From an uncultured virus (IMG/VR IMGVR_UViG_3300042502_001806) (Duplodnaviria; Heunggongvirae; Uroviricota; Caudoviricetes): a stretch of DNA of 64,000 bases. The notes below the pieces were generated by a model. That model had not been told where the DNA came from and searched no databases. It saw only the letters and a list, made by a program, of their open reading frames with translations. Below are positions 1-46,891 of this stretch, piece after piece. The stretch lies in the IMG/VR virus record IMGVR_UViG_3300042502_001806. One strand, given 5' to 3'. The translations under genes and the position numbers were made by a program. Position 1 is the first letter of the stretch. Every line of letters starts with the position of its first letter.

Positions 1-491
1 ACAATCAAGATTATAATATAACTGGTGCTTTATCAACCGGATCTGATTATAGAGTAAAAGATGGTGATGAAGTTAGTTCAACTGCTTTATCTGAATTGGA
101 ATGTCCTATTTTGGCGATGTGTTTTGGATATCAATCAATGGCTAAATTCTATGGTGTTAATATAGATAGTGGTGAAGAGAACTGTGGATTATTTAATTTA
201 AGTGATTATGATGATTCACACTTTTTATTCAAAGGTATAGATTTATCTCAACAAAAGGTAAGTTTTTGTTTTCATGATTATCCAAATAGTGTTCCTCAGG
301 GATTTGAAGTAATTGCTATGTTAGGTGATGTAATATCTGGAATATCTTCTAAGAATAGATATGGTTTGTTATTTCATCCTGAAGAGTTAGAATCTACATA
401 TACTATATTGGATAACTTTATAAATAGTTGTAAAGTAAATAAAGGTTCTGAAATGAAATATTTACAAACTTTTGAAAGATTTAGAAAATAA
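1..491 (+). CDS. Class I glutamine amidotransferase (GMP synthase GATase-like), 5' truncated by window
   Basis: Frame is open from the window start; nucleophile elbow AMCFGYQ and catalytic FHPE; ends in MKYLQTFERFRK. Confidence 0.8.
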   Translation, partial: NQDYNITGALSTGSDYRVKDGDEVSSTALSELECPILAMCFGYQSMAKFYGVNIDSGEENCGLFNLSDYDDSHFLFKGIDLSQQKVSFCFHDYPNSVPQGFEVIAMLGDVISGISSKNRYGLLFHPEELESTYTILDNFINSCKVNKGSEMKYLQTFERFRK

Positions 492-503
492 ATCATATCT
501 TTG
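471..503 (+). promoter_or_regulatory. Bacteroidota-type housekeeping promoter (-33 TTTG / -7 TAnnTTTG)
   Basis: TTTG 471-474, 21-nt spacer, TATCTTTG 496-503, just upstream of the ATG at 527. Confidence 0.7.
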
Positions 504-526
504 TACTTAAATTAAAAATATTAAAA

Positions 527-922
527 ATGTCAAATATTAAAAATTGGGGTGAGTTCCTAAAAGACGTACCAACAGATGCTTTATTATCTGAGGTAGAAAA
601 GAGAAAAATTAAACAATCTACTTCAGTAAGTGAATCAGCAAATGAAATCATGAGTCAAATCGATAAAGCGATTGAAATGTTTGGTAGTTATAGTTTTGAT
701 GATAAAGGACCTTGGGAGGTTATGGATATTAATTCCATTAAGAAAAATCTATCTACAAAATCAATAAAGGAAATTGCTGCTATATTATCTGAGATTTTAG
801 ATAACTATTCAAATTATGAAAGAGCATTTAGTGTTGTTGGTTGTATCATTGGTGAGTTTGATAGTCTACCAGAAGATGAATTTGACGAACTTTTAGATTC
901 TGATGAAAGATTTGAATATTAA
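527..922 (+). CDS. Hypothetical protein
   Basis: 131-aa ORF with A-rich start context and a preceding promoter. Confidence 0.7.
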   Translation: MSNIKNWGEFLKDVPTDALLSEVEKRKIKQSTSVSESANEIMSQIDKAIEMFGSYSFDDKGPWEVMDINSIKKNLSTKSIKEIAAILSEILDNYSNYERAFSVVGCIIGEFDSLPEDEFDELLDSDERFEY

Positions 923-937
923 AAAAACCAAAATAAA

Positions 938-969
938 TTTGGTAGATTAAAAACAAATACATATCTTTG
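938..969 (+). promoter_or_regulatory. Bacteroidota-type promoter driving the leader/tRNA array
   Basis: TTTG 938-941, 20-nt spacer, TATCTTTG 962-969. Confidence 0.75.
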
Positions 970-1010
970 TACTATACTATTAAGAAATAGTAAAAAGGAA
1001 GAATAATATT

Positions 1011-1020
1011 TTAATATATA
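1011..1020 (+). promoter_or_regulatory. Putative phage late-type promoter motif TTAATATATA
   Basis: The same 10-mer recurs just upstream of many minus-strand structural or tagged genes. Confidence 0.55.
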
Positions 1021-1027
1021 AGAAATA

Positions 1028-1123
1028 ATGAAAACAATTAACGTAAATATCGCACAAGTTAACCCGCAACCTCAGGATCAGGATTCTAAGGAAGTGACTA
1101 ACTATGTCTTTACAATAAGTTAA
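1028..1123 (+). CDS. Putative attenuator leader peptide (31 aa, MKTINVNIAQVNPQPQDQDSKEVTNYVFTIS)
   Basis: ATG 1028 to TAA 1123; Pro/Gln/Asp cluster at 1064-1084; GACTAACT 1096-1103 is complementary to the terminator 5' arm. Confidence 0.7.
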   Translation: MKTINVNIAQVNPQPQDQDSKEVTNYVFTIS

Positions 1124-1147
1124 TTTGAAACATTAAACGATTTGTAT

Positions 1148-1180
1148 AACCCAGTTAGTCTTTGATTAACTGGGTTTTTT
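1148..1180 (+). terminator. Intrinsic terminator (attenuator) before the Pro/Asp tRNA array
   Basis: AACCCAGTTAGTC-ttt-GATTAACTGGGTT 13-bp stem (one G-U) followed by a T run. Confidence 0.85.
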
Positions 1181-1195
1181 GTTTTAAGTAAAAAA

Positions 1196-1269
1196 CGGGT
1201 AGTGACTAAGGTTTTAAGCACGGGTGTTCTGGAGACATCAGTTAGTCGGTTCGATTCCGACCTACCCGA
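1196..1269 (+). tRNA. tRNA-Pro(TGG)-like, atypical (C33, A37, weak D-arm)
   Basis: Acceptor CGGGTAG/CTACCCG with A73; T-arm GTCGG-TTCGATT-CCGAC; anticodon stem GGTGT/ACATC with loop TCTGGAG. Confidence 0.65.
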
Positions 1270-1331
1270 CACGAAGTATAATTGGACAGAAACGTACTCT
1301 TTCGAGAATAGAGTAAAAGAATTCTCAAAAA

Positions 1332-1419
1332 CTAGTTGTGTAGGCAATTGGCAGCCGACCTGATTTGGATTCAGGAATGAACATAAAGTTCTATGTGGGT
1401 TCGAGTCCCATCAACTAGA
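1332..1419 (+). tRNA. tRNA-Pro(TGG) with long variable arm, atypical
   Basis: Acceptor CTAGTTG/CAACTAG with A73; anticodon stem CCTGA/TCAGG, loop TTTGGAT; 19-nt variable region; T-arm GTGGG-TTCGAGT-CCCAT. Confidence 0.7.
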
Positions 1420-1428
1420 CAAAAATAC

Positions 1429-1501
1429 GGATGTGAGGTCAAACGGTTAAGATGTCTGCCTGTCACGCAGTTCGGAGCGGGTTCAACTCCCGTCACGTCC
1501 G
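1429..1501 (+). tRNA. tRNA-Asp(GTC)
   Basis: Acceptor GGATGTG/CACGTCC with G73; loop CTGTCAC; T-arm GCGGG-TTCAACT-CCCGT. Confidence 0.85.
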
Positions 1502-1507
1502 CAAATT

Positions 1508-1579
1508 GGTCCTGTAGTTAAACGGCTATAATGTCGCCCTGTCACGGCGAAGTTCGGAGTTCGATTCTCCGTGGGACCG
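1508..1579 (+). tRNA. tRNA-Asp(GTC)
   Basis: Acceptor GGTCCTG/TGGGACC with G73; stem TCGCC/GGCGA, loop CTGTCAC; T-loop TTCGATT. Confidence 0.9.
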
Positions 1580-1634
1580 CTAACAGAAAGGTTGTTAACA
1601 CCGCTACCTGAAAATAAAAGAAAGTTAACAAAAT

Positions 1635-1706
1635 GGTCTTGTCGTCCAATGGTAGGATAACCCGTTGTCTGCGGGATGGTTGCGGGTTCGAATCCCGTCA
1701 GGACCG
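1635..1706 (+). tRNA. tRNA-Asp(GTC), atypical anticodon loop (U37)
   Basis: Acceptor GGTCTTG/CAGGACC with G73; CCCG-TTGTCTG-CGGG; T-arm GCGGG-TTCGAAT-CCCGT. Confidence 0.8.
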
Positions 1707-1715
1707 CTAAAACTA

Positions 1716-1788
1716 CGGGATGTAGTTCAGTTGATAGAACGCTCGGTTTGGGACCGAGAGGTCGCAGGTTTGAGTCCTGCCATCCCGA
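1716..1788 (+). tRNA. tRNA-Pro(TGG)
   Basis: Acceptor CGGGATG/CATCCCG with A73; CTCGG-TTTGGGA-CCGAG; canonical D-arm. Confidence 0.9.
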
Positions 1789-1819
1789 CAAAGAAATAAA
1801 ATATTAATAAATAGAAATT

Positions 1820-1870
1820 ATGAGAACAACAACACAATACCAGCAACAACAAATTAATCCAACGGATTGA
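1820..1870 (+). CDS. Putative Gln-sensing attenuator leader peptide (16 aa, MRTTTQYQQQQINPTD)
   Basis: ATG 1820 to TGA 1870; 5 Gln codons (CAA tac CAG CAA CAA CAA); stop codon lies in a segment complementary to the terminator 5' arm. Confidence 0.8.
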   Translation: MRTTTQYQQQQINPTD

Positions 1871-1898
1871 TAACGGTATCGTATTGTTTAAACTTTAC

Positions 1899-1932
1899 AA
1901 ACCCTATTCAATCTGATTGAGTAGGGTTTTTT
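1899..1932 (+). terminator. Intrinsic terminator (attenuator) before tRNA-Gln x2 and glnS
   Basis: AAACCCTATTCAA-tctga-TTGAGTAGGGTTT stem followed by a T run, ending 2 nt before tRNA-Gln. Confidence 0.85.
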
Positions 1933-1934
1933 AT

Positions 1935-2006
1935 TGCTCCATAGTATATGGGTGATCATATCTGTCTTTGAAACAGATGAGCTTGGTTCGAGTCCAAGTG
2001 GAGCAA
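1935..2006 (+). tRNA. tRNA-Gln(TTG)
   Basis: Acceptor TGCTCCA/TGGAGCA; TCTGT-CTTTGAA-ACAGA; T-arm CTTGG-TTCGAGT-CCAAG. Confidence 0.85.
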
Positions 2007-2012
2007 CAACAT

Positions 2013-2083
2013 TGTCTCGTAGTGTAACGGCAGCACAGAAGATTTTGACTCTTCTAGTCTAGGTTCGAATCCTAGCGAGACAA
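2013..2083 (+). tRNA. tRNA-Gln(TTG)
   Basis: Acceptor TGTCTCG/CGAGACA; GAAGA-TTTTGAC-TCTTC; T-arm CTAGG-TTCGAAT-CCTAG. Confidence 0.9.
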
Positions 2084-2101
2084 CTAAAAAATATAAACAT
2101 T

Positions 2102-3706
2102 ATGAATTTCATTGAAGATAAAATACTAGAAAAAGGTAATCTTGATAAATTAACATTAAGATTTCCACCAGAACCAAATGGTTACTTACATATTGGTCAC
2201 GCTAAATCTATTATACTAAATTTTGGTTTAGCTGAAAAATATAATAGACCTTGTAACTTGAGATTTGATGATACAAATCCAACTACTGAAGATACACACT
2301 TTGTTGAATCAATTATAAAAGATATAGAATGGTTAGGCTACAAACCAGCCAATATTTTTTATACATCTGATTATTTTGATTTTCTTTATGATTGTGCTGT
2401 TACTTTAATTAAAAAAGGATTAGCTTATGTTGATGATTCAACATCTGAAGAAATTGCTTTAATGAAAGGAACTCCAACTTCAGTTGGTAAAGACTCACCT
2501 TATAAATCTAGAAGTATAGAAGAAAACTTAGACTTATTTAATAGAATGAGATTAGGTGAATTTGTTGAAGGTTCTAAAATATTGAGAGCCAACATTGATA
2601 TGACTTCTCCAAATATGATTTTAAGAGATCCGGTTCTTTATAGAATAATATCTAAGTCACATCACAAAACTGGTGATACTTGGAAGATTTATCCAATGTA
2701 TGACTTTGCTCATCCACTTTCTGATTATAAAGAAGGTATCACCGATTCTTTATGTACTTTAGAATTTGAGGTTCATAGACCTTTATATATGTGGGTATTA
2801 GAAAATTGTGATTTAGAAAATCCACTTTCAGAAGAAACTGAGTTTGCTCGTTTGAACATTGACTATACAGTTATGTCAAAAAGAAAATTAAAAAGATTAG
2901 TTGAAGAAGGATTTGTAGATGGTTGGGATGATCCAAGAATGCCAACTATTTCTGGTTTAAGAAGAAGAGGTTTTACGCCAAATGCTATTAAAGACTTTTG
3001 TGATAGAATTTCTGTTACTAGAAAAGAATCAGTTGTTTCTTATTTACTTTTAGAAGAATGTTTAAGAACTGATTTGAATGTAGTCACTAATAGATTAATG
3101 GGTGTTATGGATCCAGTTAAGTTAGTTATTACCAATTGGGATATGGGAACTGAAATGGTTGAAGTTGAAAACAATCCTGGTGATGAAAGTGCTGGTATGA
3201 GAATGATTCCTTTTAGTGGTGAACTATTTATTGAAAGAGAAGATTTTAGAGAAGAAGCTAATAACAAATTTCATAGATTGAAACTAGGTGGTGAAGTAAG
3301 ATTAAAAGGTGCTTATGTTATTATGGCTAACGAAGTTATCAAAGATGAATTTGGAGAAATCACTGAGATCAGATGTGCTTACGATCCTTTAACAAGATCA
3401 GGTATGACTTTTGAAAGAAAGATTAAAGGAACTATTCACTGGGTATCTGCTGAGCACGGAGTCAGAGTTGGTGTAAATGAATATGAAAGATTATTTAATG
3501 ATGAATCACCGGATAAAAATGAAGATGATTTTATCAATTACATCAACCCAGGTTCACTTATAATTAATGATAAGGCAATCTTTGAGCCTCACGTTTTAAA
3601 CGTCAAGGAGCCAGTTCAAATGATGAGAAAAGGGTATTATATTTTAGATACTGATGGTAAAAGTTTCAACAAAACTGTTAGTTTGAAAGAAGGGTGGGTA
3701 GGTTAA
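2102..3706 (+). CDS. glnS: Glutaminyl-tRNA synthetase
   Basis: RFPPEPNGYLHIGH (HIGH), VMSKRKL (KMSKS-like), YPMYDFAH, GWDDPRMPT, KGTIHWVS anticodon-binding barrel. Confidence 0.97.
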   Translation: MNFIEDKILEKGNLDKLTLRFPPEPNGYLHIGHAKSIILNFGLAEKYNRPCNLRFDDTNPTTEDTHFVESIIKDIEWLGYKPANIFYTSDYFDFLYDCAVTLIKKGLAYVDDSTSEEIALMKGTPTSVGKDSPYKSRSIEENLDLFNRMRLGEFVEGSKILRANIDMTSPNMILRDPVLYRIISKSHHKTGDTWKIYPMYDFAHPLSDYKEGITDSLCTLEFEVHRPLYMWVLENCDLENPLSEETEFARLNIDYTVMSKRKLKRLVEEGFVDGWDDPRMPTISGLRRRGFTPNAIKDFCDRISVTRKESVVSYLLLEECLRTDLNVVTNRLMGVMDPVKLVITNWDMGTEMVEVENNPGDESAGMRMIPFSGELFIEREDFREEANNKFHRLKLGGEVRLKGAYVIMANEVIKDEFGEITEIRCAYDPLTRSGMTFERKIKGTIHWVSAEHGVRVGVNEYERLFNDESPDKNEDDFINYINPGSLIINDKAIFEPHVLNVKEPVQMMRKGYYILDTDGKSFNKTVSLKEGWVG

Positions 3707-4086
3707 GCTACCTCCCATCTACCATCTGATAAAAATTTATAAGAGCCGACAAACTCAAATTTTTTCCATTGGTCTGGAGATATTAAGGAAAGGAATTCTT
3801 CATTGGATTCCTTTTTATATAAGTGATAAATTTCACCAGATATTGGAGTAAAGTTGTGAGTAGCCATATAAAGTCTTTCATTCATTTTAATTTCTGACAT
3901 TAGCTTTTGATACTCTTTGGTCATTTCGTCAAATTTTGACGAATAGTATTTTTTTATCTTAGTAGTTTTTTCAATTTTAAAAAGACTAATATTATCTGGT
4001 TCAAATTTTGGCGCGCCAATTTCCGTTGGATAAGTCTTACTCATTCGATTTTCTACAAAACTATCAGGTCTTTTCTTCTGTTCCAT
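3703..4086 (-). CDS. DUF2452-like protein
   Basis: EIGAPKFEP and YHLY...FLSLISPDQW pattern, recalled as DUF2452. Confidence 0.6.
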   Translation of the reverse strand: MEQKKRPDSFVENRMSKTYPTEIGAPKFEPDNISLFKIEKTTKIKKYYSSKFDEMTKEYQKLMSEIKMNERLYMATHNFTPISGEIYHLYKKESNEEFLSLISPDQWKKFEFVGSYKFLSDGRWEVA

Positions 4087-4195
4087 ACAATTATATTTAT
4101 AATATTAATAATGTTTATAAAGGATATCATGATGTTTCATGAATTTAAATTTCCTAAAACAAAAAAAAATTATTATATTTGTGAATATATAATCT

Positions 4196-4651
4196 ATGTA
4201 CTGCGTTTACAAAATTAAATTTACTAAGTCACCATTTGACTTAAATGAGGACTATGACAGACTTTCTGACATAGACAAGGAGAAGATTGCTGATATGAAT
4301 GCGGATTCTTTTTTTGATTATGAAGAAGATGGCGTTTATACATTTTTTACTATAGCTGAACCAATCGAAGTTAAAAGATATTTAGGTGTACTTTCAGAAA
4401 ATTTAGTTAAATTTGAACTAACTGATTTATCTAAAGATATATTAAAATCAAATTTTGATTTAAATTTAGAATTAGGTCCTAAAGTGAATCCAATTGATTC
4501 AATGAAATTTTCATTTTTTATTGATGATTTAGATGATTGGATATACAACAATTTAGATATTGACACTATATTAGATAGAATAAGTCAAGTGGGGTTAGAC
4601 TCACTTACTAAAGTAGAAAAAGAATTTCTTAACAATAATTATAACGTATGA
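4196..4651 (+). CDS. Hypothetical protein
   Basis: 151-aa ORF; C-terminal IDTILDRISQVGLDSLTKVEKEFL helical-hairpin motif. Confidence 0.7.
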   Translation: MYCVYKIKFTKSPFDLNEDYDRLSDIDKEKIADMNADSFFDYEEDGVYTFFTIAEPIEVKRYLGVLSENLVKFELTDLSKDILKSNFDLNLELGPKVNPIDSMKFSFFIDDLDDWIYNNLDIDTILDRISQVGLDSLTKVEKEFLNNNYNV

Positions 4652-4824
4652 AAAAATTAAAAGAACTAAGAGCTAAATTTATTATGAGTTGGGCTCAACC
4701 AATGGCTGACTTTTTAATTGAAAGATTAGAAATGTCAACAGACAATCAAGAATTTGAAACTTGGTTTAATATAGCATTATATTTAGACCTTTATTGTACA
4801 AACAAAGGAGTGTACTTAAATTAA
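4648..4824 (+). CDS. Small hypothetical protein (58 aa, not in ORF track)
   Basis: ATGA overlap with the upstream stop; MKKLKELRAKF...GVYLN fills the gap exactly. Confidence 0.65.
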   Translation: MKKLKELRAKFIMSWAQPMADFLIERLEMSTDNQEFETWFNIALYLDLYCTNKGVYLN

Positions 4825-4828
4825 AAAA

Positions 4829-5245
4829 ATGAAATTATTTTTAGACGACATCAGAATTCCAGGAATGGCTCATAACGCAGTTAAGGGTTTAGGATTGGAT
4901 TATATGGCTACTGACAAGTGGACTATTGCTCGTGACTATTTTGAATTTGTTGATATTGTTAATAAACATTTTAACGAAATTGAATTAGTTTCATTTGATC
5001 ATGATTTGGCTTGTGTAGATAAAGATGGTAAAGAGTGGACTGGTAAAGATGCGGCTGATTATTTAATCAACTATTGTTTAGACCATGTAAAACACTTCCC
5101 AGATTGGTATGCTCATACTGATAATACTTCTGGTCGTCAAAATATAATTGGAGCTATCAACGGATATTTGAAGGCAATCGAAGGTAAAGACATTACCGAC
5201 TTCAGATATTACCACAACGGAATTGTTAACGGTAAATTTGTATAA
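4829..5245 (+). CDS. Cyclic-phosphate-processing receiver-like domain protein
   Basis: KLFLDDIR, VSFDHDL, TGKD, HTDNxxG motifs. Confidence 0.7.
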   Translation: MKLFLDDIRIPGMAHNAVKGLGLDYMATDKWTIARDYFEFVDIVNKHFNEIELVSFDHDLACVDKDGKEWTGKDAADYLINYCLDHVKHFPDWYAHTDNTSGRQNIIGAINGYLKAIEGKDITDFRYYHNGIVNGKFV

Positions 5246-8262: not shown

Positions 8263-8868
8263 ATGGCGACTATAAAAAAGTTTAATCAATTTAATACATC
8301 TGAGTGGATAGGACCGTTGAAGGTTCTTGATATTAAAGAAAATACAGTTTATACAAACTTTGGTAACTTCTTCAATAAATCAGAAAATAAATTAACAGTA
8401 GGATATTCTTATATTTTAAGAGTTGTTAATAATGATATTGTTGATACAGGAATGTCTTGTGTCGATTTAGTTGTTCTTATTGATACAGGTACAAACTATA
8501 AAGTTCTTTCTATTAAAAGAGGTCGAGCACCATTTGTTGGTATGTGGGCTAATCCAGGAGGAAACATTGACGAGGGTGAACAACCTTTAGATGCCGCTTC
8601 TCGTGAGTTAGAAGAAGAAACAGGACTTATGATACCTAGTAAGTATTTTACTTATGTAGGTGCTTTTGATAAAGAGTTCAGAGATCCTCGTAATAAAAAT
8701 TGTGTTAGTCATGCTTTCGTTATTGTTTTAGATGAAATGCCAGTTGTTAAAGCTGGTGATGATGCTACAGAATGTACTTGGAATGATGTAAGTTATGATG
8801 GTGATGTAACCGTTGATATGGCATTTGACCACGCAGAAATAATTAAAAAATCAATTCAATCAATATGA
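8263..8868 (+). CDS. NUDIX hydrolase (ADP-ribose pyrophosphatase-like)
   Basis: Nudix box GGNIDEGEQPLDAASRELEEETG; RDPR, AGDDA, AFDHAEI. Confidence 0.92.
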   Translation: MATIKKFNQFNTSEWIGPLKVLDIKENTVYTNFGNFFNKSENKLTVGYSYILRVVNNDIVDTGMSCVDLVVLIDTGTNYKVLSIKRGRAPFVGMWANPGGNIDEGEQPLDAASRELEEETGLMIPSKYFTYVGAFDKEFRDPRNKNCVSHAFVIVLDEMPVVKAGDDATECTWNDVSYDGDVTVDMAFDHAEIIKKSIQSI

Positions 8869-9353
8869 GTATTAAAAACTTAAAAGAACCATTTGTTATT
8901 ATCCTTATCGGACCACCTCTATCTGGTAAATCAACTTGGATTAGAGAAAACTTTCCAACGACTGAAGTAATTAGTCGTGATGAAACTGTTATGGAAGTCT
9001 ATGGTTCAAGAAACTATACTGAGGCATTTAACAATGTAGACCAAAAAGAAGTAGATAGAGTTTTAACTCAAAAGTTTTTAGATGCTAATTTGGTTAAAAA
9101 GAATGTGATTGTTGACATGACACACATGGCTTCTAAGCGTAGAAAGCAAAATCTAAACTATTTCTCAGATGATTACTATAAGTTGGGTGTTATCTTTCCA
9201 ATTCTTTCAGATGATGAATATGTAAGACGTAATCAAAAAAGAATTGAAGAAGAAAATAAAGATCTTCCAATGAGAATTGTTAAGTCTATGATTTCTTCTT
9301 ACCAACCAATCACAACAGATGAAGGGTTTAACAAAGTAATTACATTAAAATAA
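8865..9353 (+). CDS. AAA_33 / polynucleotide-kinase-like P-loop kinase
   Basis: GPPLSGKST Walker A, ISRD, VIVDMT, RNQKR lid, EGF tail. Confidence 0.85.
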   Translation: MSIKNLKEPFVIILIGPPLSGKSTWIRENFPTTEVISRDETVMEVYGSRNYTEAFNNVDQKEVDRVLTQKFLDANLVKKNVIVDMTHMASKRRKQNLNYFSDDYYKLGVIFPILSDDEYVRRNQKRIEEENKDLPMRIVKSMISSYQPITTDEGFNKVITLK

Positions 9354-12131: not shown

Positions 12132-12545
12132 ATGAAAGTAAGTTTTGATTTTGACCACACGTTATCTAGAAAAGATGTTCAGGTATTTGCCAAACAATTG
12201 GTAGATGAAGGACACGAAGTTTGGATTGTTACCTCAAGATTTAGTGATGAAGCGGCAAAAGAAAAGAAGTGGCATTGGATAGAAGGACAAAATCAAAAAC
12301 TATTTGATGTTGCGGAAGAATGTGGTATTAAAAAAGAAAATATTCAATTCACTTGTATGGAATCTAAGTCTTACTTTTTAGAAGGCAAAGGATTTATATT
12401 TCATTTAGATGATGATGATATTGAATTGATGGATATTTTTGAGTCTAATAAATTTGACCAAAGTAAATGTTTCCCAGTTCATGTAGACCATTTTGAGTGG
12501 AAAGAAACTTGTCGAAATATTTTGAAGAAAAATTTGGCAGAATAA
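12132..12545 (+). CDS. HAD-superfamily phosphatase-like protein
   Basis: MKVSFDFDHTL (DxD), IVTSR, HLDD; start at 12132 after TATCTTTG. Confidence 0.8.
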   Translation: MKVSFDFDHTLSRKDVQVFAKQLVDEGHEVWIVTSRFSDEAAKEKKWHWIEGQNQKLFDVAEECGIKKENIQFTCMESKSYFLEGKGFIFHLDDDDIELMDIFESNKFDQSKCFPVHVDHFEWKETCRNILKKNLAE

Positions 12546-12564
12546 GAAATAAGTATTATCTTTG
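12533..12564 (+). promoter_or_regulatory. Bacteroidota-type promoter
   Basis: TTTG 12533-12536, 20-nt spacer, TATCTTTG 12557-12564. Confidence 0.75.
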
Positions 12565-12672
12565 TGTAACAAAAGAGATAAAAAAGATTAAAGATAACCT
12601 AAACGGTGAGGGACATTAAAAGTAAAGCACGAAGCTTGAGCCCAAATAGGAGGCGGTCACCGTCCGAAAAAT

Positions 12673-12759
12673 GAGGAAGTAACAAAGTGGTCAAATGTGG
12701 TTGTGTCGTAACACAGCTGGCTTTTAAGTCTTCGGAGGTTCGAATCCTACCCTTCCTCA
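12673..12759 (+). tRNA. tRNA-Tyr-like (GTA) with expanded anticodon loop and bulged T-stem; possibly a pseudo-tRNA
   Basis: Acceptor GAGGAAG/CTTCCTC with A73; long variable arm; GGTTCGAATCC; GTTGT-GTCGTAAC-ACAGC 8-nt loop. Confidence 0.65.
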
Positions 12760-12809
12760 CAAAATTTGCGGTTTTTTACAACTTTTAAAAATCACAAAGT
12801 ATAACCTAT

Positions 12810-13049
12810 AGAGTTTTCGTAGTGGTTGACTCTTAATTCTCCTAACGGAGGGGTCTGTTTTTACAGGGTGGATACCAAACTCCACGCAAAGTTTTCGTAG
12901 TGGTTAACTAACCCTTTAACTAGGGGGTCTGTCTTGAACAGTGTGGGTACCAAAACCCACTCTACTTAAAAAGAGTTTTCGTAGTGGTTAACTCTTAATT
13001 CCTCTTAACAGAGGGGTCTACTCCAAGTAGGGTGGGTACTGAACCCCAC
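12810..13049 (+). ncRNA. Three tandem copies of a 70-80-nt four-hairpin structured RNA motif
   Basis: Copies at 12810-12885, 12890-12960 and 12971-13049; invariant GTTTTCGTAGTGGTT with compensatory stem changes. Confidence 0.75.
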
Positions 13050-13067
13050 ACTAAACACATTTCATTA

Positions 13068-14684: not shown

Positions 14685-16820
14685 ATGAAGAATACTAAGA
14701 ACAACATCGAAGGCAGAGATTATGTATCACCTGATATTAAAGCCGCTATTGACGATGATGATGAAGATAGTCCTTCCTTTAATTCTAGTTCGAGAAAACC
14801 AGACTCTAAGTCTAAAACTCCTGTACTAGACACTTATAGCCGTGACCTAACTAAAATGGCTGAAGAAGGAAAACTTGATGCTATCATTGGTCGTGAAAAA
14901 GAGATTGAGAGAGTTTCTCAAATTCTTTCTCGCAGAAAGAAAAACAATCCAATCTTAATTGGTGAACCAGGTGTAGGTAAATCTTCAATCGCTGAAGGAT
15001 TAGCACTAAGAATTATTCAAAGAAAAGTAAGCCGCATTCTTTTTAACAAAAGAATCGTAATGCTTGATTTAGCTTCTATGGTGGCTGGTACTAAGTACCG
15101 TGGTCAGTTTGAAGAACGTATCAAAGCTCTAATGGCTGAAATGGAGAAAGAACCAGACGTTATTCTTTTCATTGATGAAATTCACACTATTATCGGTGCC
15201 GGTGGTGCCTCTGGTTCATTAGATGCTTCTAATATGTTCAAACCTGCTTTAGCTCGTGGTGAAATTCAAATCATCGGTGCTACAACTTTGGATGAATACC
15301 GTAAGCATATTGAGAAAGATGGCGCTTTGGAAAGACGTTTTCAAAAAGTAATTGTTGAGCCAGCTTCTGCTGAAGAAACAATTCAAATCATTGCTAACAT
15401 CAAAGATAAGTATGAATCACATCACAATGTAGTTTATACTGAAGAAGCAATCAAAGCTTGTGTTGATTTAACTGATCGTTATGTTACCGATCGTTTCTTA
15501 CCAGACAAAGCTATTGATGCTTTAGATGAGGCTGGATCTCGTGTTCACATTTCAAATATTGTTGTTCCTAAAGTCATTACTGACATTGAGAATAAGATTG
15601 GAGAAATTAAAGAGAAAAAGAATCAAGTTATTCGTTCTCAGAAATATGAAGAAGCTGCTAAGTTAAGAGACGTTGAGCGTCAGCTTAATGAATCTTTGGA
15701 AGTTGAGAGAAAGAAATGGGAAGATGAATGTTCTAACAACAAACAAACAGTAACTGAAGACAATGTAGCAGAAGTCGTTTCGATGATGACTGGTATTCCT
15801 CTTCAAAAGGTATCTGAAAATGAAACCTCTAAACTTGGTAAAATGCAAGAATCTATCGTTGGTAAAGTTGTTGGTCAAGATGATGCTGTTAAGAAGATTG
15901 TTAAAGCGATTCAAAGAGGTCGTGTTGGTTTGAAAGACCCAAACAAACCAATCGGTTCATTTATGTTCTTAGGACCTACTGGTGTTGGTAAAACACAATT
16001 GGCTAAAGTTTTAGCTAAGTATCTATTTGACTCAGAAGATTCTTTAATTAGAATTGATATGTCTGAGTACATGGAGAAGTTTGCTGTATCTCGTTTGATT
16101 GGTGCGCCTCCAGGCTACGTTGGTCACGATGAAGGTGGACAATTAACTGAGAAAGTAAGACGTAAGCCTTACTCAGTAGTTCTTCTTGATGAGATTGAGA
16201 AAGCTCACCCAGAAGTTTTCAACTTGTTACTTCAAGTTCTTGACGATGGTCAGTTAACAGATTCTCTTGGTAGAAAAGTTAACTTTAAGAATACCATTAT
16301 CATTATGACTTCTAACACTGGTTCACGTCAGTTGAAAGAATTCGGAACTGGAGTGGGTTTCAATACTAAAACTAGAGAGTCTAAAGGTCAACAAGAGTCA
16401 AATTCAGTTATTGATAAAGAGTTGAAGAAGAAATTCGCACCTGAGTTCTTAAATCGTATTGATGATGTTGTAATGTTTAACTCACTTGTAAAAGAAGATA
16501 TTAATAAAATTATTAGTATTGAATTAGAGAAGTTAGTTAGTCGTGTTCAAAAGATGGATTTTGAATTAGAAATTACCGAAGGTGCTACTGATTATATCGC
16601 TTCTCAAGGATTTGACCCAGAATATGGTGCTAGACCTTTGAAGAGAGCTATTCAGAAGTATGTTGAAGATGTTCTAACAGAAGAAATCATCCAACAAAAC
16701 CCTGAAAAGATGTCTAAATTATTGTTAGATTACAATAAAGAAGACGACAAGATGGTTGTAGTAATTACTTCTCCACCAAAGAAGAAAGTTACTAGAAGGA
16801 AAAAAGATACTGACATTTAG
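14685..16820 (+). CDS. clpC: ClpC-type Hsp100 ATPase lacking the N-terminal Clp repeat domain
   Basis: Two AAA modules ([16 protein letters not shown]), UVR-like YEEAAKLRD coiled coil, GVGF ClpP-docking loop, GARPLKR. Confidence 0.93.
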
Positions 16821-16896: not shown

Positions 16897-17817
16897 ATGG
16901 AACTTAATGCTAAAATTTTTGTTGCTGGTCATAATGGAATGGTTGGATCAGCAATAGTTAGGAAACTAACAGAACTTGGATATACAAATATTATAACATC
17001 CGATAGAAGTAAATTAAATTTACTTAACCAATCAGATGTTGACTCTTTTTTTAATATAACTTGTCCTGAATATGTTTTTCTTGCTGCTGCCAAAGTAGGT
17101 GGTATAAAAGCAAACAACGAAATGAAAGGTGATTTTATTTATGAGAATATTATGATTCAATCTAATATAATTAAATCTTCTAAAGACCACAATGTTAAAA
17201 AATTAATATTCTTAGGATCATCTTGTATTTATCCTAAGATGTCACCACAGCCAATTAAAGAAGAGTATTTATTAACTGGTTCATTAGAACCAACAAATGA
17301 TGCTTATGCTATTGCTAAGATTGCTGGTATTAAAATGTGTCAAAGCTTTAATCAACAGTATGGTACTAATTACATTTCTGTAATGCCTACTAATCTTTAC
17401 GGACCAAATGATAATTATGACTTAAACAATTCTCACGTTTTACCAGCAATGATTCGTAAATTTCACGAGGCTAAGTTAGAGGGTAAAGATAAAGTTGAAA
17501 TTTGGGGAACCGGAACACCAATGAGAGAATTTCTTTATGTAGATGATTTAGCTGATGCTTGTATTCATCTTATGTTAAACTATAATGGTAGTGAAGTAGT
17601 AAACATTGGCACTGGAGTAGATATAACAATAAAAGATTTAGCCCTAACAATAAAAGAAGTTGTTGGCTTTGAAGGTGATATTTATTTTAATACAGATATG
17701 CCTGATGGTACACCAAGAAAACTTTTAGATGTTTCTAGATTAAAAGATTTAGGTTGGGAATACAAAACCACTTTGAGAGAGGGGATAGAAAAAACATATA
17801 AAGATTATGTCAAATAA
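16897..17817 (+). CDS. fcl: GDP-L-fucose synthase
   Basis: [50 protein letters not shown]. Confidence 0.96.
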
Positions 17818-18835
17818 GAAAGCATTTATAACAGGTATAACAGGTCAAGATGGATCATACTTAGCCGAGTTATTACTAGAAAAAGGATATGAAGTTCATG
17901 GTATTGTTAGAAGATCATCTACTATCAATACTGGTAGAATTAATCATATCTATAACAAAATTAAATTACACTATGGTGATATGACTGATTCACTTTGTCT
18001 TGATAGACTTATGAGTGAAATTAAACCAGATGAGATTTATCACTTAGCAGCACAGTCACATGTAAAAGTATCATTTGAATTACCAGAATATACTGGTCAA
18101 GTTGATGCTATGGGTACACTTAGATTTATCGAAGCTTATAGAAAGCATTGTCCTAATGCTAGATTCTATAATGCCTGTACATCAGAAATGTATGGTTTGG
18201 TTAAAGAAGTGCCTCAAACAGAAGTAACACCTTTTCACCCAAGAAGTCCTTATGGTGTTGCTAAATTATATTCATTCTGGATATGTAAAAACTACAGAGA
18301 AGCTTATGGTTTACATATTAGTAATGGTATTCTTTTTAATCACGAAGGTGAAAGAAGAGGTGAAACATTTGTTACTCGTAAAATCACTTTAGCATTAGGA
18401 GAGATTAAAAGATGTTTAGATAACGGTCAAGAATTTCCTAAATTAAGATTAGGTAATCTTTACTCTAAAAGAGATTGGGGTTATGCTAAAGACTTTGTTT
18501 ATGGTATGTGGTTAATGTTACAACAAGACAAACCAGATGATTATGTTCTTTCAACTAATGAAACACACACAATTAAAGAGTTTGTTGAATTGGCTTGTAA
18601 AGAATGTGGTTGGAACATAACTTGGGAAGGTGAAGGAGAAAATGAGAAAGGTTTAGTAGATGGATTAGTTATAGTAGAATTAGATAAAAAGTATTTGAGA
18701 CCGTCTGAGGTTGATTTACTTATTGGTGATTATACAAAAGCTAAAACTGTTTTAGGATGGGAACCTAAAGTTAAATTTGAAGAGTTAGTGAAAATCATGA
18801 TGGAGCATGATATTAAAAATATAAATAGTATATGA
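17807..18835 (+). CDS. gmd: GDP-mannose 4,6-dehydratase
   Basis: [43 protein letters not shown]. Confidence 0.97.
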
Positions 18836-19533
18836 TACATATTTTATGGTGTACACTAAGACCTGCTCAGTTTCAACACGCACACACAGAATGGATTAAA
18901 AGAGCTGATAATCCAGAAAACATACAAACTTATGTTGCTGTTAATTGGAAAGAACACGCTGATCAATTAAGAGATTACTTAAAGAAAAATTATCTAATAA
19001 CAGTTAATACTAATAAGATTGGTGTTTGTTACCCATCTTATGAGCTATCTTCTAAATTGGGAATTAAAATGGGTGTAGCAAATGATGGTGATATTGTTAT
19101 TTTTGCTTCTGATGATTTTATGGCACCTCAAGGTTGGGACACTTATTTAATTAATAAGTTAAATGACAAAGGAGATGTTGGTTTAATGGTTAGAGATGGT
19201 TATCAATTACCTGATTCATCTAACATGTTACACGCAGCAATTACAATTCCTATCATGACTTATGGTTGCTTGAAGAAATTAAATATGACTATCTATCATC
19301 CGGCTTATAATCATATGTTCTCTGATTGTGAGTTGTATAATAATCTAAAAGACTTAGAGTTATTATATGATGATAGAATAAATGATACTACAGTATTTGA
19401 ACATTTACATTATGCTGCTGGTAAAAGAAATGCCGATCAGGCGGACCAAGCTTATAATGCTAAATGGGTGGAAGATGAAGTAACTTGGAATAATAGAAAA
19501 TTATTACCAGTGGAAAAAAGAATAGAAATATAA
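18832..19533 (+). CDS. GT-A fold glycosyltransferase-like protein
   Basis: ASDD (DxD-like), GWD, FSDCEL, EHLH; located in the sugar operon. Confidence 0.6.
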
Positions 19534-19534
19534 A

Positions 19535-20308
19535 ATGACAGACATTTTTATCAAAACATACCCAGGTGATTTTATTTGGTTGGAGTATTGTATCAAAAGT
19601 ATTGAAAAATTTGTAACAGGCTTTAGAGACATTGTTATTGTTACAGATAGTGAAACAGAATTAAAAATTGATTCTAACCTTCCAATTAAAATCTTTTATG
19701 AAGATTTACCAAACGAAACACATCCTTGTCCAGTTGGCATTGGATATGCTTGGGCTCAAAGCGTAAAGTTAAATTGGACAAAGTACACAGATGCTGACTA
19801 TATTCTTCAAATTGATAGTGATACTATGTTTACTAATAACATAGATATGTCTTATTATCAAATTGATGAAAAAATTAAATGGTTTTATAGAGAGTGGTCC
19901 GAATCAGGTGAAGGTGAGATTCATAGAGTTCCTACTGATTTTTTTATTAAAAGAGAATCTACAAGAGATCATATGCCTGCTCCAACTTGGTTTTTTTCTA
20001 GAAAAACTACAGAACTATTTCAAAATTGGGTTAATGAAAATTGGGGTGGTATTTGGAATTATCTAAATGTACATGCTAGACAATTATGGACTATGGATTT
20101 AGATTTTCAATCTAATCATATTCATACTCACAAAGGTTGGGGTTCTTGTGAATATCATATGTATGGTAATTTTATAGAATTTTTTTATCCTGACGAATAT
20201 CAATTAGTACATTCGAGTCAATATGGTGTTCCTATTAGACAATCTTGGTCATGGGGCGGCTTAAAGGAAGATGAGATTAAATTTAGAGAAGAATTATTAA
20301 GTAAGTAA
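19535..20308 (+). CDS. Putative glycosyltransferase (DUF6492-like)
   Basis: IKSIEKF, GYxxxQxxKL, IDSD, EYxxYG. Confidence 0.55.
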   Translation: MTDIFIKTYPGDFIWLEYCIKSIEKFVTGFRDIVIVTDSETELKIDSNLPIKIFYEDLPNETHPCPVGIGYAWAQSVKLNWTKYTDADYILQIDSDTMFTNNIDMSYYQIDEKIKWFYREWSESGEGEIHRVPTDFFIKRESTRDHMPAPTWFFSRKTTELFQNWVNENWGGIWNYLNVHARQLWTMDLDFQSNHIHTHKGWGSCEYHMYGNFIEFFYPDEYQLVHSSQYGVPIRQSWSWGGLKEDEIKFREELLSK

Positions 20309-21813
20309 TGAATGTTTTCACAACTATAAATCCTAATGGTAATTTTGAAGCTCAAAATGAAGCTATGTCTTCTTGGGCTTTAAAATTTACTATTTATTCT
20401 GTTAATACAAAAAATGATATTGATAAAGTTAAAGATTTATATCCATATGTTAATTTTATAGAAACAGAAGATACTTATATTTATAAAGGAAAAGAATTAA
20501 TAAAGTTAAATGCGTTACTTGAAGCTATTAAGAGTTCTGATAAAGAATATGCTTGTATAGTAAACTCTGATATTATATTAAACTCTAGTATAGATATAAG
20601 TGATTTATTAAAAAACAAATATTTAGATAAAGGTTTAATAATAGCAACTAGATATGAAATAGATGGTGAGAAAGAACCATATCCATTTACTTCTGGTTAT
20701 GATATATTTATATTTAATAAAAAAAATGTAAATCTATTTTTAAATAAAAACTATGTTATTGGAATGCCTTGGTGGGATTATTGGGTTCCAATTATTTCAA
20801 ATAAAAATTCATTTACTATCTATCATATAAATAGTAAATTAATTTATCATAAAACACATCAAACTAACTATGATGGTGATGTTTGGAATGAGTTTGGTCA
20901 AAGTTTATATAAAGACATAGTATCAAAAAAAGGATTTTGGTCAACAGCTGATGGTAAAGTAGTTAATGATATAAAAAATTACGCTGATATATACTCATTT
21001 TGTACAAGTATTAAAAAATTTATAGAAAAAGAACAGATAAATATAAACCTATCTGAAAAAAAAGAAAAACTAAACATGAAGATAGTATTTTTCACCACAT
21101 CAACATTTTCAGATATTCAAGAAACTCAATCTGAATGTATTAATAAATTATTTCCCGAAAGTGATCACATTAAAATTGATGGTAGAACTGGTTGGTTTAC
21201 TGTTTGGTATGAGTGGTTAAATAGGTCATATAAATATGTAGCTGATTGGTATGTTCATATTGATGAAGATTGTTTTATCACCTCAAGAGATGAGATAGAA
21301 AATCTAATTCAATATATGATTAAAAATAATCTAGATATTGCCGGTCCACCTGATGGATATTTTGAATATAGAGGTGGTAACAATATGGCTTTTAATTCAT
21401 TTTTTATGATAATGAATAGAAAGTGTATTGATACTTGGTTTAATAGAACGTCTATACCTCAATTTAAACAGGAATGGATAGAAGAGTATCCTTATGAAAA
21501 AAAAGGAGGTGTTAATTATGAGTATAATATGGAGTTTGGTACTTCTGGTAAACCGCTTGGTTTAATATGGAAACCCTGTACTGAACCATATTATGATTTT
21601 ATGTGGGTTTTAAAAGAAGCCGGTATTAAATTCCATTATTTAGAACCAATTTTTGGTGATGAATTTCAAACAACTAACTTATTAAATAATACAATATATC
21701 ATATGTGGCATCAAAGAGAAAGATGGGTTGATAGAATTGTTTCACCTGTTCATAAAATGACTAACAAACAAAGATTTGATGGTATGATTGAAAAAATTAA
21801 AAAAACAATATGA
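20308..21813 (+). CDS. Two-domain putative glycosyltransferase fusion
   Basis: N-domain NSDI/GYD/PWWDYW; second domain starting MKIVFFTT with IDED. Confidence 0.55.
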   Translation: MNVFTTINPNGNFEAQNEAMSSWALKFTIYSVNTKNDIDKVKDLYPYVNFIETEDTYIYKGKELIKLNALLEAIKSSDKEYACIVNSDIILNSSIDISDLLKNKYLDKGLIIATRYEIDGEKEPYPFTSGYDIFIFNKKNVNLFLNKNYVIGMPWWDYWVPIISNKNSFTIYHINSKLIYHKTHQTNYDGDVWNEFGQSLYKDIVSKKGFWSTADGKVVNDIKNYADIYSFCTSIKKFIEKEQININLSEKKEKLNMKIVFFTTSTFSDIQETQSECINKLFPESDHIKIDGRTGWFTVWYEWLNRSYKYVADWYVHIDEDCFITSRDEIENLIQYMIKNNLDIAGPPDGYFEYRGGNNMAFNSFFMIMNRKCIDTWFNRTSIPQFKQEWIEEYPYEKKGGVNYEYNMEFGTSGKPLGLIWKPCTEPYYDFMWVLKEAGIKFHYLEPIFGDEFQTTNLLNNTIYHMWHQRERWVDRIVSPVHKMTNKQRFDGMIEKIKKTI

Positions 21814-22655
21814 ATGTAGTTTCAGTTCAAATTTATTCCGACCAAAATACACCTTGGGATAGATCAAAAATTGATTTCCCAATTAACATAGAAGATACTA
21901 ATTGGCCCGGTAATGGTTGTGGTCTTTGTAATCAAATATTTAAACTTATTAATACTATAGCTTTTAATAATGGACATGATATTTATGTAGATTTATTCTC
22001 TAAAGATTATTCAAGAGGTAATACTATATGTGCTTCTGATATATTTAATTTAGAAGAGATGCGTAAGTTAGGACATAGATTATATGATATTGTTGATATG
22101 GATTATAATCAAAACTATGTAATTAAAACATATCCTGGAGTTTATATGTTATATCATATGAATAAAGATTATTTTATCAATATTGTTAAAAGTCTAAGAT
22201 TTAATAGTAAATATGAAAATATATCAAAGAATATCTTAGTTAATAAAGACCTATCAAATAAATTAGTAAATTTAGTACACTTGAGGATAGATATTGATTT
22301 TAAAAATCATGTAGTATCAACGAGTAGTTTAGAAAACTACTTAAATATCATTGAAAGGTATAGAGAACAAATATATATGAACTGTGATAATTCAATACCA
22401 CTTGTTTTATTGCTAGAAGAAACTGACCATTCATTTGTAAAAGAGTTACAAAAAGATTATGATGTTTATATGTTTGAAAAGTCAGAAGTATTAAGTGTTG
22501 ATAATAAAATAGAAGGTAGAGAAATATTTGCTTTAGTTGACTTACTTACAGCAAAAGAATTAACTATTGATAAATTTATTGGACTCGAAGGTAGTACTTT
22601 TTCTTTGATATTAAATTATCTAATAGAATGTAAAAAATCAATTATTTTAAAATGA
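21810..22655 (+). CDS. O-fucosyltransferase-like GT-B protein
   Basis: GLCNQ, VHLRID, A-x-VD, FIGxxGSTFS. Confidence 0.65.
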   Translation: MNVVSVQIYSDQNTPWDRSKIDFPINIEDTNWPGNGCGLCNQIFKLINTIAFNNGHDIYVDLFSKDYSRGNTICASDIFNLEEMRKLGHRLYDIVDMDYNQNYVIKTYPGVYMLYHMNKDYFINIVKSLRFNSKYENISKNILVNKDLSNKLVNLVHLRIDIDFKNHVVSTSSLENYLNIIERYREQIYMNCDNSIPLVLLLEETDHSFVKELQKDYDVYMFEKSEVLSVDNKIEGREIFALVDLLTAKELTIDKFIGLEGSTFSLILNYLIECKKSIILK

Positions 22656-23269
22656 AATTATATGTAATATTCACACCTTCACATAGAAATCTATATGAAG
22701 ATTATTTTTTAAAAACTCTTCCTAATGAGTTTGAATTAATTCCCATAGAGATTCCTCAGGAATGTCCAACTGGTGAATTCTACAAAGAGGGTTGGGATAA
22801 AACCTGCTATAGAAAAGTAGAGTTGTTTCATAAAGCATGTGAAGAAAATCAAGGAGAGTTATATGCCTTTTCTGATGTTGATATTCAATTTTTTGGAAAT
22901 ATCAAAGAAACTATGATAGAAGAATTAGGTGATTATGATATAGCTTGTCAAAATGATACGGGTCAATTTTATTGTTCGGGTTTTTTTATTTGTAGAGGAA
23001 ATGAAAGAACATTAAATATGTTCTCTGAGATGAAGAAAAATTACGAAGGGGAAGACCAAACAACATTAAATAGACATATTCATATGGTTAAGTCAAAGTT
23101 TTTATCTAGAAAGTTTTTTACAATTGGTCATATTGTAGGTCTTTGGAATGGACAAGAGTTTAATATACCTTATCCTATATTAGTACATCACTCAAATTGG
23201 ACATCTGGTATTGAAAACAAAATTAAACTATTAGATATAGTTAGAAAAAAAGTAGAAAATAATGGATAA
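22652..23269 (+). CDS. Nucleotide-diphospho-sugar transferase (GT77-like)
   Basis: FSDVDI, CSGF, DQ, HSNW...K. Confidence 0.7.
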   Translation: MKLYVIFTPSHRNLYEDYFLKTLPNEFELIPIEIPQECPTGEFYKEGWDKTCYRKVELFHKACEENQGELYAFSDVDIQFFGNIKETMIEELGDYDIACQNDTGQFYCSGFFICRGNERTLNMFSEMKKNYEGEDQTTLNRHIHMVKSKFLSRKFFTIGHIVGLWNGQEFNIPYPILVHHSNWTSGIENKIKLLDIVRKKVENNG

Positions 23270-26245: not shown

Positions 26246-26263
26246 AAATAATAGAAAATAATA

Positions 26264-27232: not shown

Positions 27233-27236
27233 AAAT

Positions 27237-27953: not shown

Positions 27954-27955
27954 CT

Positions 27956-28852: not shown

Positions 28853-28853
28853 A

Positions 28854-29855: not shown

Positions 29856-29872
29856 AAAAATAAATAAAAAAT

Positions 29873-30511: not shown

Positions 30512-30517
30512 AATAAA

Positions 30518-32157: not shown

Positions 32158-32167
32158 TATAATATAA

Positions 32168-32662: not shown

Positions 32663-32664
32663 TT

Positions 32665-33396: not shown

Positions 33397-33403
33397 ATAT
33401 CTA

Positions 33404-34306: not shown

Positions 34307-34314
34307 AATCTAAT

Positions 34315-46843: not shown

Positions 46844-46859
46844 ATATCTATATATATTA

Positions 46860-46891
46860 TTTGGTGTAATCAAAATTAATTTATATCTTTG
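46860..46891 (+). promoter_or_regulatory. Bacteroidota-type promoter for the RNA ligase gene
   Basis: TTTG 46860-46863, 20-nt spacer, TATCTTTG 46884-46891. Confidence 0.75.

Follow-up and report, generated by a model that had tools for sequence, protein, structure and literature searches.

A probable multivalent and nested leader-peptide attenuator ahead of a tRNA array in a huge phage, with related units across its relatives

Organization of the locus

The DNA analysed here, referred to as the window, is a stretch of 64,000 nucleotides (nt) from the uncultured virus record IMGVR_UViG_3300042502_001806 of IMG/VR. Near its start lies a candidate transcription attenuator, made up of a short open reading frame (ORF) behind a promoter-like motif, an intrinsic terminator and an array of transfer RNA (tRNA) genes for proline and aspartate, followed in turn by a second short ORF, a second terminator, two glutamine tRNA genes and a gene for glutaminyl-tRNA synthetase (GlnRS) (Table 1). 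The window is AT-rich and was assigned to a huge phage from its blastn relatives, the nearest records being two uncultured phage genomes, LR756502.1 (642,428 bases; 57% of the query matched at 74.5% identity) and LR745206.1 (634,780 bases; 52% matched at 78.5% identity). The portion of PMC7162821 covered here describes complete phage genomes of 634, 636, 642 and 735 kilobases (kb), in a clade predicted to infect Bacteroidetes and carrying up to 67 tRNAs, and that portion contains neither of the strings "attenuat" and "leader".

A first-pass annotation, made from the sequence letters, had described a leader peptide of 31 codons with a run of Pro, Gln and Asp codons; the ORF list gives the same frame, reading MKTINVNIAQVNPQPQDQDSKEVTNYVFTIS, and the seven codons are found exactly where they had been placed. 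The ORF lies behind a promoter-like motif, which presumably fits the Bacteroidetes promoter consensus, and its clustered codons (PQPQDQD) are cognate to the Pro and Asp tRNA genes and to the Gln unit that follow. Pro, Asp and Gln together make up 13.4% of the residues encoded by the window ORFs, and at this frequency a run of seven such residues is expected about 2e-5 times per 31-residue peptide. The GC-rich codons of the run do stand out, as had been remarked: CCG represents 27 of the 625 Pro codons (4%) in 74 window ORFs versus 17 of 36 in 14 distinct leaders of the Pro/Asp leader family, and CAG 69 of 558 Gln codons (12%) versus 18 of 48, counts which are not independent because these leaders are related. 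Rare codons are enriched in the sensors of the Pro/Asp leader family.

Table 1. Features of the locus in the window, and leaders of other units in related phages with the tRNAs downstream of them
Feature	Position	Strand	Basis or remark
Promoter-like motif TTTG-N20-TATCTTTG	938..969	+	Regular-expression scan; end 58 nt before leader ATG
Leader ORF, 31 codons, MKTINVNIAQVNPQPQDQDSKEVTNYVFTIS	1028..1123	+	ORF translation; homologous ORFs in 14 further loci
Segment 1 (tentative), pairs with 1099-1107	1054..1061	+	Full-length minimum-energy fold
Sensor codons CCG CAA CCT CAG GAT CAG GAT (Pro, Gln, Pro, Gln, Asp, Gln, Asp)	1064..1084	+	
Segment 2, candidate antiterminator 5' strand GACTAACT, within 3' part of leader ORF	1096..1103	+	-9.4 kcal/mol
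Intrinsic terminator, 13-base-pair (bp) stem 1148-1160/1164-1176, loop of 3, then TTTTGTTTT T tract	1148..1185	+	-16.8 kcal/mol
Segment 3, AGTTAGTC, exact complement of GACTAACT, in terminator 5' arm	1153..1160	+	
tRNA-Pro-like gene (UGG), unusual anticodon loop	1196..1269	+	Rfam tRNA 29.2 bits, cut-off 29
tRNA-Pro(UGG), atypical, 84-89 nt	1332..1420	+	ARAGORN; Rfam 30.9 bits
Three tRNA-Asp(GUC) genes, 1429-1502, 1508-1580, 1635-1707	1429..1707	+	ARAGORN and Rfam
tRNA-Pro(UGG), canonical	1716..1789	+	ARAGORN; Rfam 69.5 bits
Nested Gln leader MRTTTQYQQQQINPTD, without promoter motif of its own	1820..1870	+	
Second terminator, 14-bp stem	1899..1929	+	
Two tRNA-Gln(UUG) genes	1935..2084	+	ARAGORN
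GlnRS gene, last in nested unit	2102..3706	+	Pfam tRNA-synt_1c E = 8e-98 and both anticodon-binding domains
Leader MTTNSTHKNFSKSHKWFSNQSFGTESVLSLN			Followed by tRNAs for His, Phe, His, Phe, Trp, Lys x4
Leader MKTINNTSKSSSRSSSMSEIRLYS			Followed by tRNAs for Arg, Ser
Leader MNTITNIASYESYYEEGNLVRRNNYVVM			Followed by tRNAs for Glu x4, Tyr x2
Leader MKNLNNISIAVIGNGAGAIREWLSYGI			Followed by tRNAs for Ile, Gly, Met, Gly, Gly, Ala
Leader MLVVVAIVIKKKKKPWSQGTIAY			Followed by tRNAs for Lys x5
Leader MKQRFTYTTKTSTTWPVMPTTVGAICIIMAGDY...			Followed by tRNAs for Gly, Met, Val, Trp, Tyr, Pro, Ile, Asp, Ala, Thr, Arg

Conservation of the leaders and correspondence with their tRNA arrays

A homologous leader and terminator precede Pro/Asp tRNA genes at 14 loci besides the window (e.g., leaders MKNLNLNIVNPQPQVVIDQDPGSKGANYVVLS and MKTFVNIFVSQPQPQVVIDQDPDTIKANCVFM), with Pro, Gln and Asp kept while third codon positions vary: the first Pro codon is CCG, CCT or CCC, the second CCT, CCG, CCA or CCC, and Gln is encoded by CAA or CAG. 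Relatives of the GlnRS yielded 9 IMG/VR loci and 80 metagenome loci, and the alignment used below (A1) joins 15 loci including the window, namely L001, L002 and GlnRS-relative loci, with 14 distinct leader ORFs.

The first-pass annotation had proposed scanning the tRNA clusters of relatives for similar units and comparing leader codons with downstream anticodons against shuffled controls; in the scan the match proved systematic and exceeded the permutations in all five genomes. For this genome-wide test, a tRNA-model search of five whole related phage genomes gave 50-68 clustered matches per genome, and 22 regions around clusters were taken. Units were called by rule with an RNAfold-based hairpin finder, requiring a terminator of -11 kcal/mol or lower and a + strand tRNA gene within 300 nt, and the upstream ORF (uORF) was the longest ATG-initiated ORF of 12-60 codons ending no more than 70 nt before the terminator; 300 nt was used because a distance of 150 nt lost the first unit of the window, L020 and one L024 unit, in which atypical tRNAs are uncalled. 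Through this rule 43 units were obtained, 41 of them with a uORF, and 31 of the units belong to the five genomes. The Asp/Asp/Pro array of L045 has no unit by the rule and counts as a miss, and L040 and L043 are truncated at their 5' ends.

In each of the five genomes the true pairing of leaders with arrays scored highest of all permutations (1/720, 1/5040, 1/5040, 1/720 and 1/120), with a mean match of 0.36-0.42 for own arrays versus 0.11-0.20 off the diagonal, these five tests not being independent because the genomes are related. Across the 41 units, 117 of 120 tRNA identities are matched by one codon or more in the leader of their unit and 108 of 120 by two or more (odds ratio 24.5), and the match peaks in the ORF's own frame in 39 of the 41 (0.35 versus 0.15 and 0.11). 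The correspondence between leader and array is therefore systematic and frame-specific. Furthermore, leaders track rearranged arrays: in one genome (L011, L032, L033) the arrays are differently composed and the leaders differ accordingly. Here (L032/L033) a KKKKK leader heads an array of five Lys tRNA genes and nothing else, and WPVMPTTVGAICIIMAGDY precedes a mixed array with 11 identities. Single tRNA genes (Met, Arg-UCU, Cys and a CUA suppressor) were found without a leader unit, while multi-gene arrays have them. The full promoter motif type occurs 16-121 nt upstream of 19 of the 41 leaders, and its -7 part alone before 29 of the 41.

The nested Gln unit and the composition of the arrays

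The window array had been described as three tRNA-Pro and three tRNA-Asp genes followed by a Gln unit, and this is correct: ARAGORN calls Pro, Asp, Asp, Asp, Pro (1332-1789) and then Gln twice, and Rfam adds the sixth gene at 1196-1269, which ARAGORN misses in the window and whose homologues in L001 and L002 are called tRNA-Pro(UGG); two of the Pro genes are atypical. The leader MRTTTQYQQQQINPTD, its terminator, both tRNA-Gln genes and the GlnRS gene are all in place behind the array.

The Gln unit had further been taken for a second gate nested behind the first, which is supported by two observations, namely that Gln units mostly have no promoter motif and that the leaders upstream of them contain Gln codons. 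In the window, a motif scan gave no promoter motif within the 613-nt Pro/Asp array or before the Gln leader, and even the -7 motif is missing at most Gln units (window, L002, L003, L004, L006, L007, L008, L011), the exceptions being L010, whose Gln unit has a full motif and is separated by 1.7 kb from the Pro/Asp array, and L001, with -7-like hits only. The leader that precedes the Gln unit and carries Gln codons is the Pro/Asp leader in the window's relatives; in L011 it is TLRQLVLEQLIE, a Leu/Arg/Glu leader before a Leu/Arg/Met/Glu/Ile array. The first array itself includes a tRNA-Gln gene in L037 and in L007, where this gene comes first, so the presence of Gln codons in the outer leader could in part go back to such an arrangement. 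At 20 GlnRS loci with 54-57% identity, which appear to be bacterial-like, no Gln leader, terminator or tRNA-Gln gene was found upstream of glnS.

The arrays show several further peculiarities. The anticodon loops of Pro-like genes read TCTGGAG or TCAGGAG (window 1196-1269; L001 2047-2120 and ~2500-2575; L002 1932-2006 and ~2500-2575), with C in the position of U33, a residue that tRNAs almost always have, and ARAGORN misses several of these genes. In three RNA-library runs, precisely the gene at 1332-1420 is missing from contigs of relatives (joints 1326/1330 to 1423/1427), and array content thus varies between close relatives. The 60-nt spacer between tRNA genes at 1271-1331, kept in L002 (~2087-2146), includes two small hairpins and a perfect TATAAT. 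Should it act as a promoter, five tRNA genes would be transcribed independently of the first gate; the promoter consensus scan of the window did not flag the spacer. ARAGORN also reports four-base anticodons in arrays (gtag, acat, ggaa and ttga; L002 2427-2500, L025 ~4918, L029 ~2699, L043 ~649), which may reflect enlarged anticodon loops or miscalls. Finally, a lone tRNA in L027 (~2631), without a leader unit, has the anticodon CUA of the amber suppressor type (ARAGORN label Pyl), which hints at TAG recoding in that phage.

Terminators, complementary segments and predicted folds

The hairpin at 1148-1176 was found with the 13 pairs that had been attributed to it, followed by TTTTGTTTT, and the complementarity of GACTAACT with AGTTAGTC in its 5' arm, likewise pointed out beforehand, is exact in the sequence. 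Within positions 1-5000 there are four terminator-like sites, against 1.3 expected from shuffles. In alignment A1, with its 15 sequences, a terminator lies before the tRNA genes with 88% of cells paired, and the candidate antiterminator has 92% of cells paired, compared with 2-54% for slid controls; its variants are mostly wobble-compatible (GACTAACT, GGCTAACT, GGCTAATT). Column shuffles of A1 gave no significant covariation for the terminator, the antiterminator or the hairpin of segments 1 and 2. In the predicted fold of the nascent RNA 1028-1163, in which the 3' arm of the terminator is not yet made, 1096-1103 pairs with 1153-1160, and the full-length fold contains the terminator together with the 1054-1061/1099-1107 hairpin around the sensor codons.

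The picture across all units is stronger than that of the window alone, where the putative antiterminator is backed by conservation and not by covariation. Over the 41 units, the pairing of leader and own terminator 5' arm has a mean z of -1.92, with 16 units below -2, and in each of the five genomes the pairing of own leaders and arms did better than permuted pairings, 8/720, 13/5040, 7/5040, 8/720 and 3/120 permutations reaching it. In the Asn/Leu/Thr/Val family, changes in the leader segment go along with changes in the terminator, TCTGAGGG occurring with CCCTCAGA and GAATCTGGG with CCCAGATTC: L014, L020 and L025 pair ..TGAGGG.. with CCCTCA.., and L028 pairs GAATCTGGG with CCCAGATTC, each reached by 0 of 200 shuffles. 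The spacing of the parts is regular, like that of classical attenuators, with a median of 8 nt from the last sensor codon to segment 2 (interquartile range 4-11; 11 nt in the window) and 17-36 nt from the stop codon to the terminator (24 nt in the window).

Two loci combine a leader and a terminator in another manner. At L007 2377-2408 and L036 3084-3115 the terminator is AAACCCTCATAAGTTAGTTCTTATGAGGGTTT, and the leader ORF is identical (L007) or nearly identical (L036) to that of the window; judged by eye, AGTTAGTT straddles the junction of arm and loop of this terminator. This combination looks like module shuffling by recombination.

Proposed mechanism and alternative explanations

With the integration of these findings, we consider that the unit is probably a ribosome-mediated (leader-peptide) transcription attenuator that gates the phage tRNA array, and that it is multivalent and nested, as the first-pass annotation had suggested; what the sequences show is the layout of the parts and their conservation, the match of leaders and arrays, systematic relative to permuted controls and specific to the frame, and the complementarity of leader and terminator. 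In such a system, host RNA polymerase would start near 938-969 and transcribe the leader, with a ribosome translating it close behind. When Pro-, Asp- and Gln-tRNAs are ample, the ribosome would pass 1064-1084, cover segment 2 at 1096-1103 and reach the stop codon at 1121-1123, upon which the 13-bp hairpin would form and transcription would end at the T tract. Should any of the three be scarce, the ribosome would stall in PQPQDQD and leave segment 2 free to pair with 1153-1160, and the polymerase would continue into the six Pro/Asp tRNA genes. The second gate, formed by the QYQQQQ leader and its terminator, would then precede both tRNA-Gln genes and GlnRS, and through the Gln codons of the first leader a Gln shortage would open both gates. 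The new tRNAs would relieve the stall, so that the unit would behave as a negative-feedback supply controller. Here we infer leader translation, the stall-dependent switch, its direction and its physiological trigger, the last being possibly on-demand replacement after tRNA damage, or general decoding demand.

Several observations weigh against this reading. In the window leader, Pro or Asp accounts for only 4 of 30 residues, and two of the three Pro genes that it would serve are atypical. A crude measure, the fraction of leader residues represented in the own array, places the arrays of Pro/Asp leaders only 2nd to 6th of 5-7. Big arrays match the MK..N.NI N-terminus common to many leaders, and more was learnt from the summed permutation test and the counts per tRNA identity. 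Amino-acid starvation, which makes aminoacyl-tRNA scarce, would be indistinguishable from tRNA loss. Regarding the RNA, the hairpin of segments 1 and 2 is poorly conserved (70% of cells paired in A1), and the window antiterminator comprises only 8 bp, at -9.4 kcal/mol versus -16.8 kcal/mol for the terminator; 13 of 200 dinucleotide shuffles equal its leader/5'-arm pairing (-9.4 versus -6.6 kcal/mol in shuffled sequences). In A1 this pairing is conserved and not covarying, with one compensatory pair and 110 of 500 shuffles reaching the observed value, and enforcing it costs 10 kcal/mol relative to the free fold. When a 30-nt ribosome footprint was masked at five positions, static folds kept the terminator at all five, and any switch must therefore be kinetic; the trp attenuator is likewise kinetic. 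In L007 and L036 the terminator differs, and segment 2 has no pairing partner in its 5' arm (-3.0 kcal/mol in L007).

Some of these features would fit a leader that senses translation with another output, namely Rho access, RNase processing or transcript stability, the hairpin being a fixed leaky terminator or processing signal: the window antiterminator is weak and does not covary within its family, L007 and L036 retain the leader and not the arm pairing, and the terminator is never lost in static folds. We regard this alternative as improbable, since leaders complement their own terminator arm more than the arms of other units, the complementary segment changes with the terminator in the Asn/Leu/Thr/Val family, and sensor, segment 2, stop codon and terminator are regularly spaced. 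Opposite logic, in which efficient leader translation under ample tRNAs would promote readthrough, and arrays would be made only when translation already works, gains some room from the fact that the direction of the proposed switch rests on inference and that the predicted nascent-RNA fold forms the antiterminator even without a ribosome. It is nevertheless highly improbable, because segment 2 lies inside the ORF and 3' of the sensor codons, where a running ribosome would cover it, because the stop codon, 17-36 nt before the terminator, is so distant that a terminating ribosome would not open the hairpin, and because the layout is that of classical attenuators, which open on stalling. A further reading takes the hairpins for ordinary constitutive terminators, or for insulators that separate tRNA modules, and the small ORFs for unrelated small genes or chance frames. 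It is hardly credible: nothing specific favours it beyond the frequency of short ORFs and hairpins in AT-rich DNA and the promoter-like motif at 12533-12564, which also heads a non-coding RNA, and it is contradicted by the permutation, odds-ratio and frame tests, by the conservation of the leader with synonymous change, and by single tRNA genes being without units where multi-gene arrays have them.

Comparison with known regulatory systems

Attenuation through a leader peptide is known from textbooks as a control of genes for amino-acid synthesis, and enterobacteria have multivalent examples, the thr leader containing Thr and Ile codons and the ilvGMEDA and ilvBN leaders Ile, Leu and Val codons. 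The phage unit has in common with the thr and ilv attenuators a promoter-proximal short ORF, clustered codons for more than one amino acid, a terminator with a putatively competing upstream pairing and a stop codon well before the terminator. It differs from them in that it would regulate tRNA genes and one synthetase instead of biosynthetic enzymes, the product relieving the stall thus being the tRNA itself; moreover, it presumably belongs to a phage of a Bacteroidetes-type bacterium, would have two gates nested in one transcript, and shows no sequence or Rfam relationship to those attenuators. The attenuator of pheST, with its pheM leader, controls phenylalanyl-tRNA synthetase in E. coli, and resembles the inner QYQQQQ unit in that a cognate-codon leader would control a synthetase (GlnRS); unlike pheST, the phage unit has tRNA genes between attenuator and synthetase, and its outer unit would control tRNA genes only. 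T-box riboswitches work without translation, through direct binding of uncharged tRNA. They share with the mechanism proposed for the phage unit the sensing of specific tRNAs by codon-anticodon logic and a terminator/antiterminator switch before translation-related genes, whereas a conserved, frame-specific ORF is present here. In the Salmonella mgtA and mgtCBR leaders (mgtL, mgtP), Pro codons couple ribosome speed to alternative RNA structures in a manner similar to that proposed here, but the regulated genes are others and there is no homology.

No match at gathering score was obtained in the 64-kb window for the Rfam leader families (His, Thr, Trp, Leu, Phe and others) or for the T-box, and at E<=1 the sole leader-family match in 900-2150 was mgtC_leader, which scored 20.5 bits where the cut-off is 48 (E = 0.3). 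E. coli pheV, considered as a precedent with a Phe-codon leader, was rejected, as the 105 nt between yqgA and pheV contain no such ORF. In the literature covered, mainly titles and the openings of abstracts, no description of leader-peptide attenuation of tRNA genes was found.

Sequence data sets and genomic context

The window stretch is present in lake-water DNA metagenomes, and six RNA-library runs contain small shares of it. In three of the four RNA-library runs examined, a relative's contig spans the terminator into the tRNAs and extends from 87 to >250 letters further upstream; these contigs are from relatives, reveal neither transcript ends nor levels, and could come from DNA carry-over, and they were given zero weight; bins that lack coverage likewise carry no meaning.

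The window also encodes an RNA-repair-type gene set (45096-48069, 60408-61049, 4829-5245 and 8865-9353), comprising two RNA ligases, a fusion of 2H-phosphoesterase and exonuclease that has a weak Acb1-like match, a receiver domain of the cyclic-phosphate-processing type, and a P-loop kinase domain (AAA_33). These genes provide a setting for an RNA-repair theme and do not count as evidence for the switch.

Elsewhere, the regions 16897-36209 and 56265-59422 include a long + strand block that encodes glycosyltransferases, methyltransferases and sugar-nucleotide enzymes (GDP-mannose dehydratase, UDP-galactopyranose mutase, etc.), and DnaJ and GrpE are encoded on the - strand, with a ClpB-like ATPase at 14685-16820. 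A promoter-like motif on the + strand at 56023-56054 lies amid - strand genes and is followed by a Lys-rich ORF of 62 codons (56087-56275). A third such motif, at 12533-12564, is followed by some 700 nt that lack a long ORF (region 12533-13062), in which a tRNA-like piece at 12673-12758 matches the tRNA-Sec model at only 18.1 bits (E = 0.87). Behind this piece come three tandem units of ~85 nt that share three hairpins, with six pairs kept despite two-sided changes; this array has no Rfam family match and is unreported by Tandem Repeats Finder.

Implications for phage tRNA arrays

Beyond the single locus, we tentatively propose a wider role, in which we have less than even confidence. The multi-gene arrays, which hold most of the 50-68 tRNA-model matches per genome, may constitute five to seven independent, codon-addressed attenuator modules, acting as a distributed sensor-and-actuator network in which each module would gauge how fast the codons of its own tRNAs are decoded and resupply these tRNAs, and for Gln also the synthetase, with nested gates providing OR logic. 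The main role of this network may be an answer to targeted loss of host tRNAs, through anticodon-nuclease defences or tRNA decay in infection, a role that fits the RNA-ligase and end-healing genes of the window. Phage tRNAs can reportedly evade tRNA-targeting defences, according to PMC11555353, which offers a setting for the replacement idea and is no test of it.

The finding would represent a new use of a known mechanism. If the attenuator reading is true, stable-RNA genes can come under translation-sensing feedback, which would explain how phages with dozens of tRNA genes could avoid a constant cost, and there would be a directly testable link from host tRNA loss to a phage response. The leaders, which together cover Pro/Asp/Gln, Gln, His/Phe/Lys/Trp, Ser/Arg, Glu/Tyr, Gly/Ala/Ile, Asn/Leu/Thr/Val and Lys, would then represent a set of natural, compact and codon-specific sensors, with a potential second use as reporters of decoding capacity.

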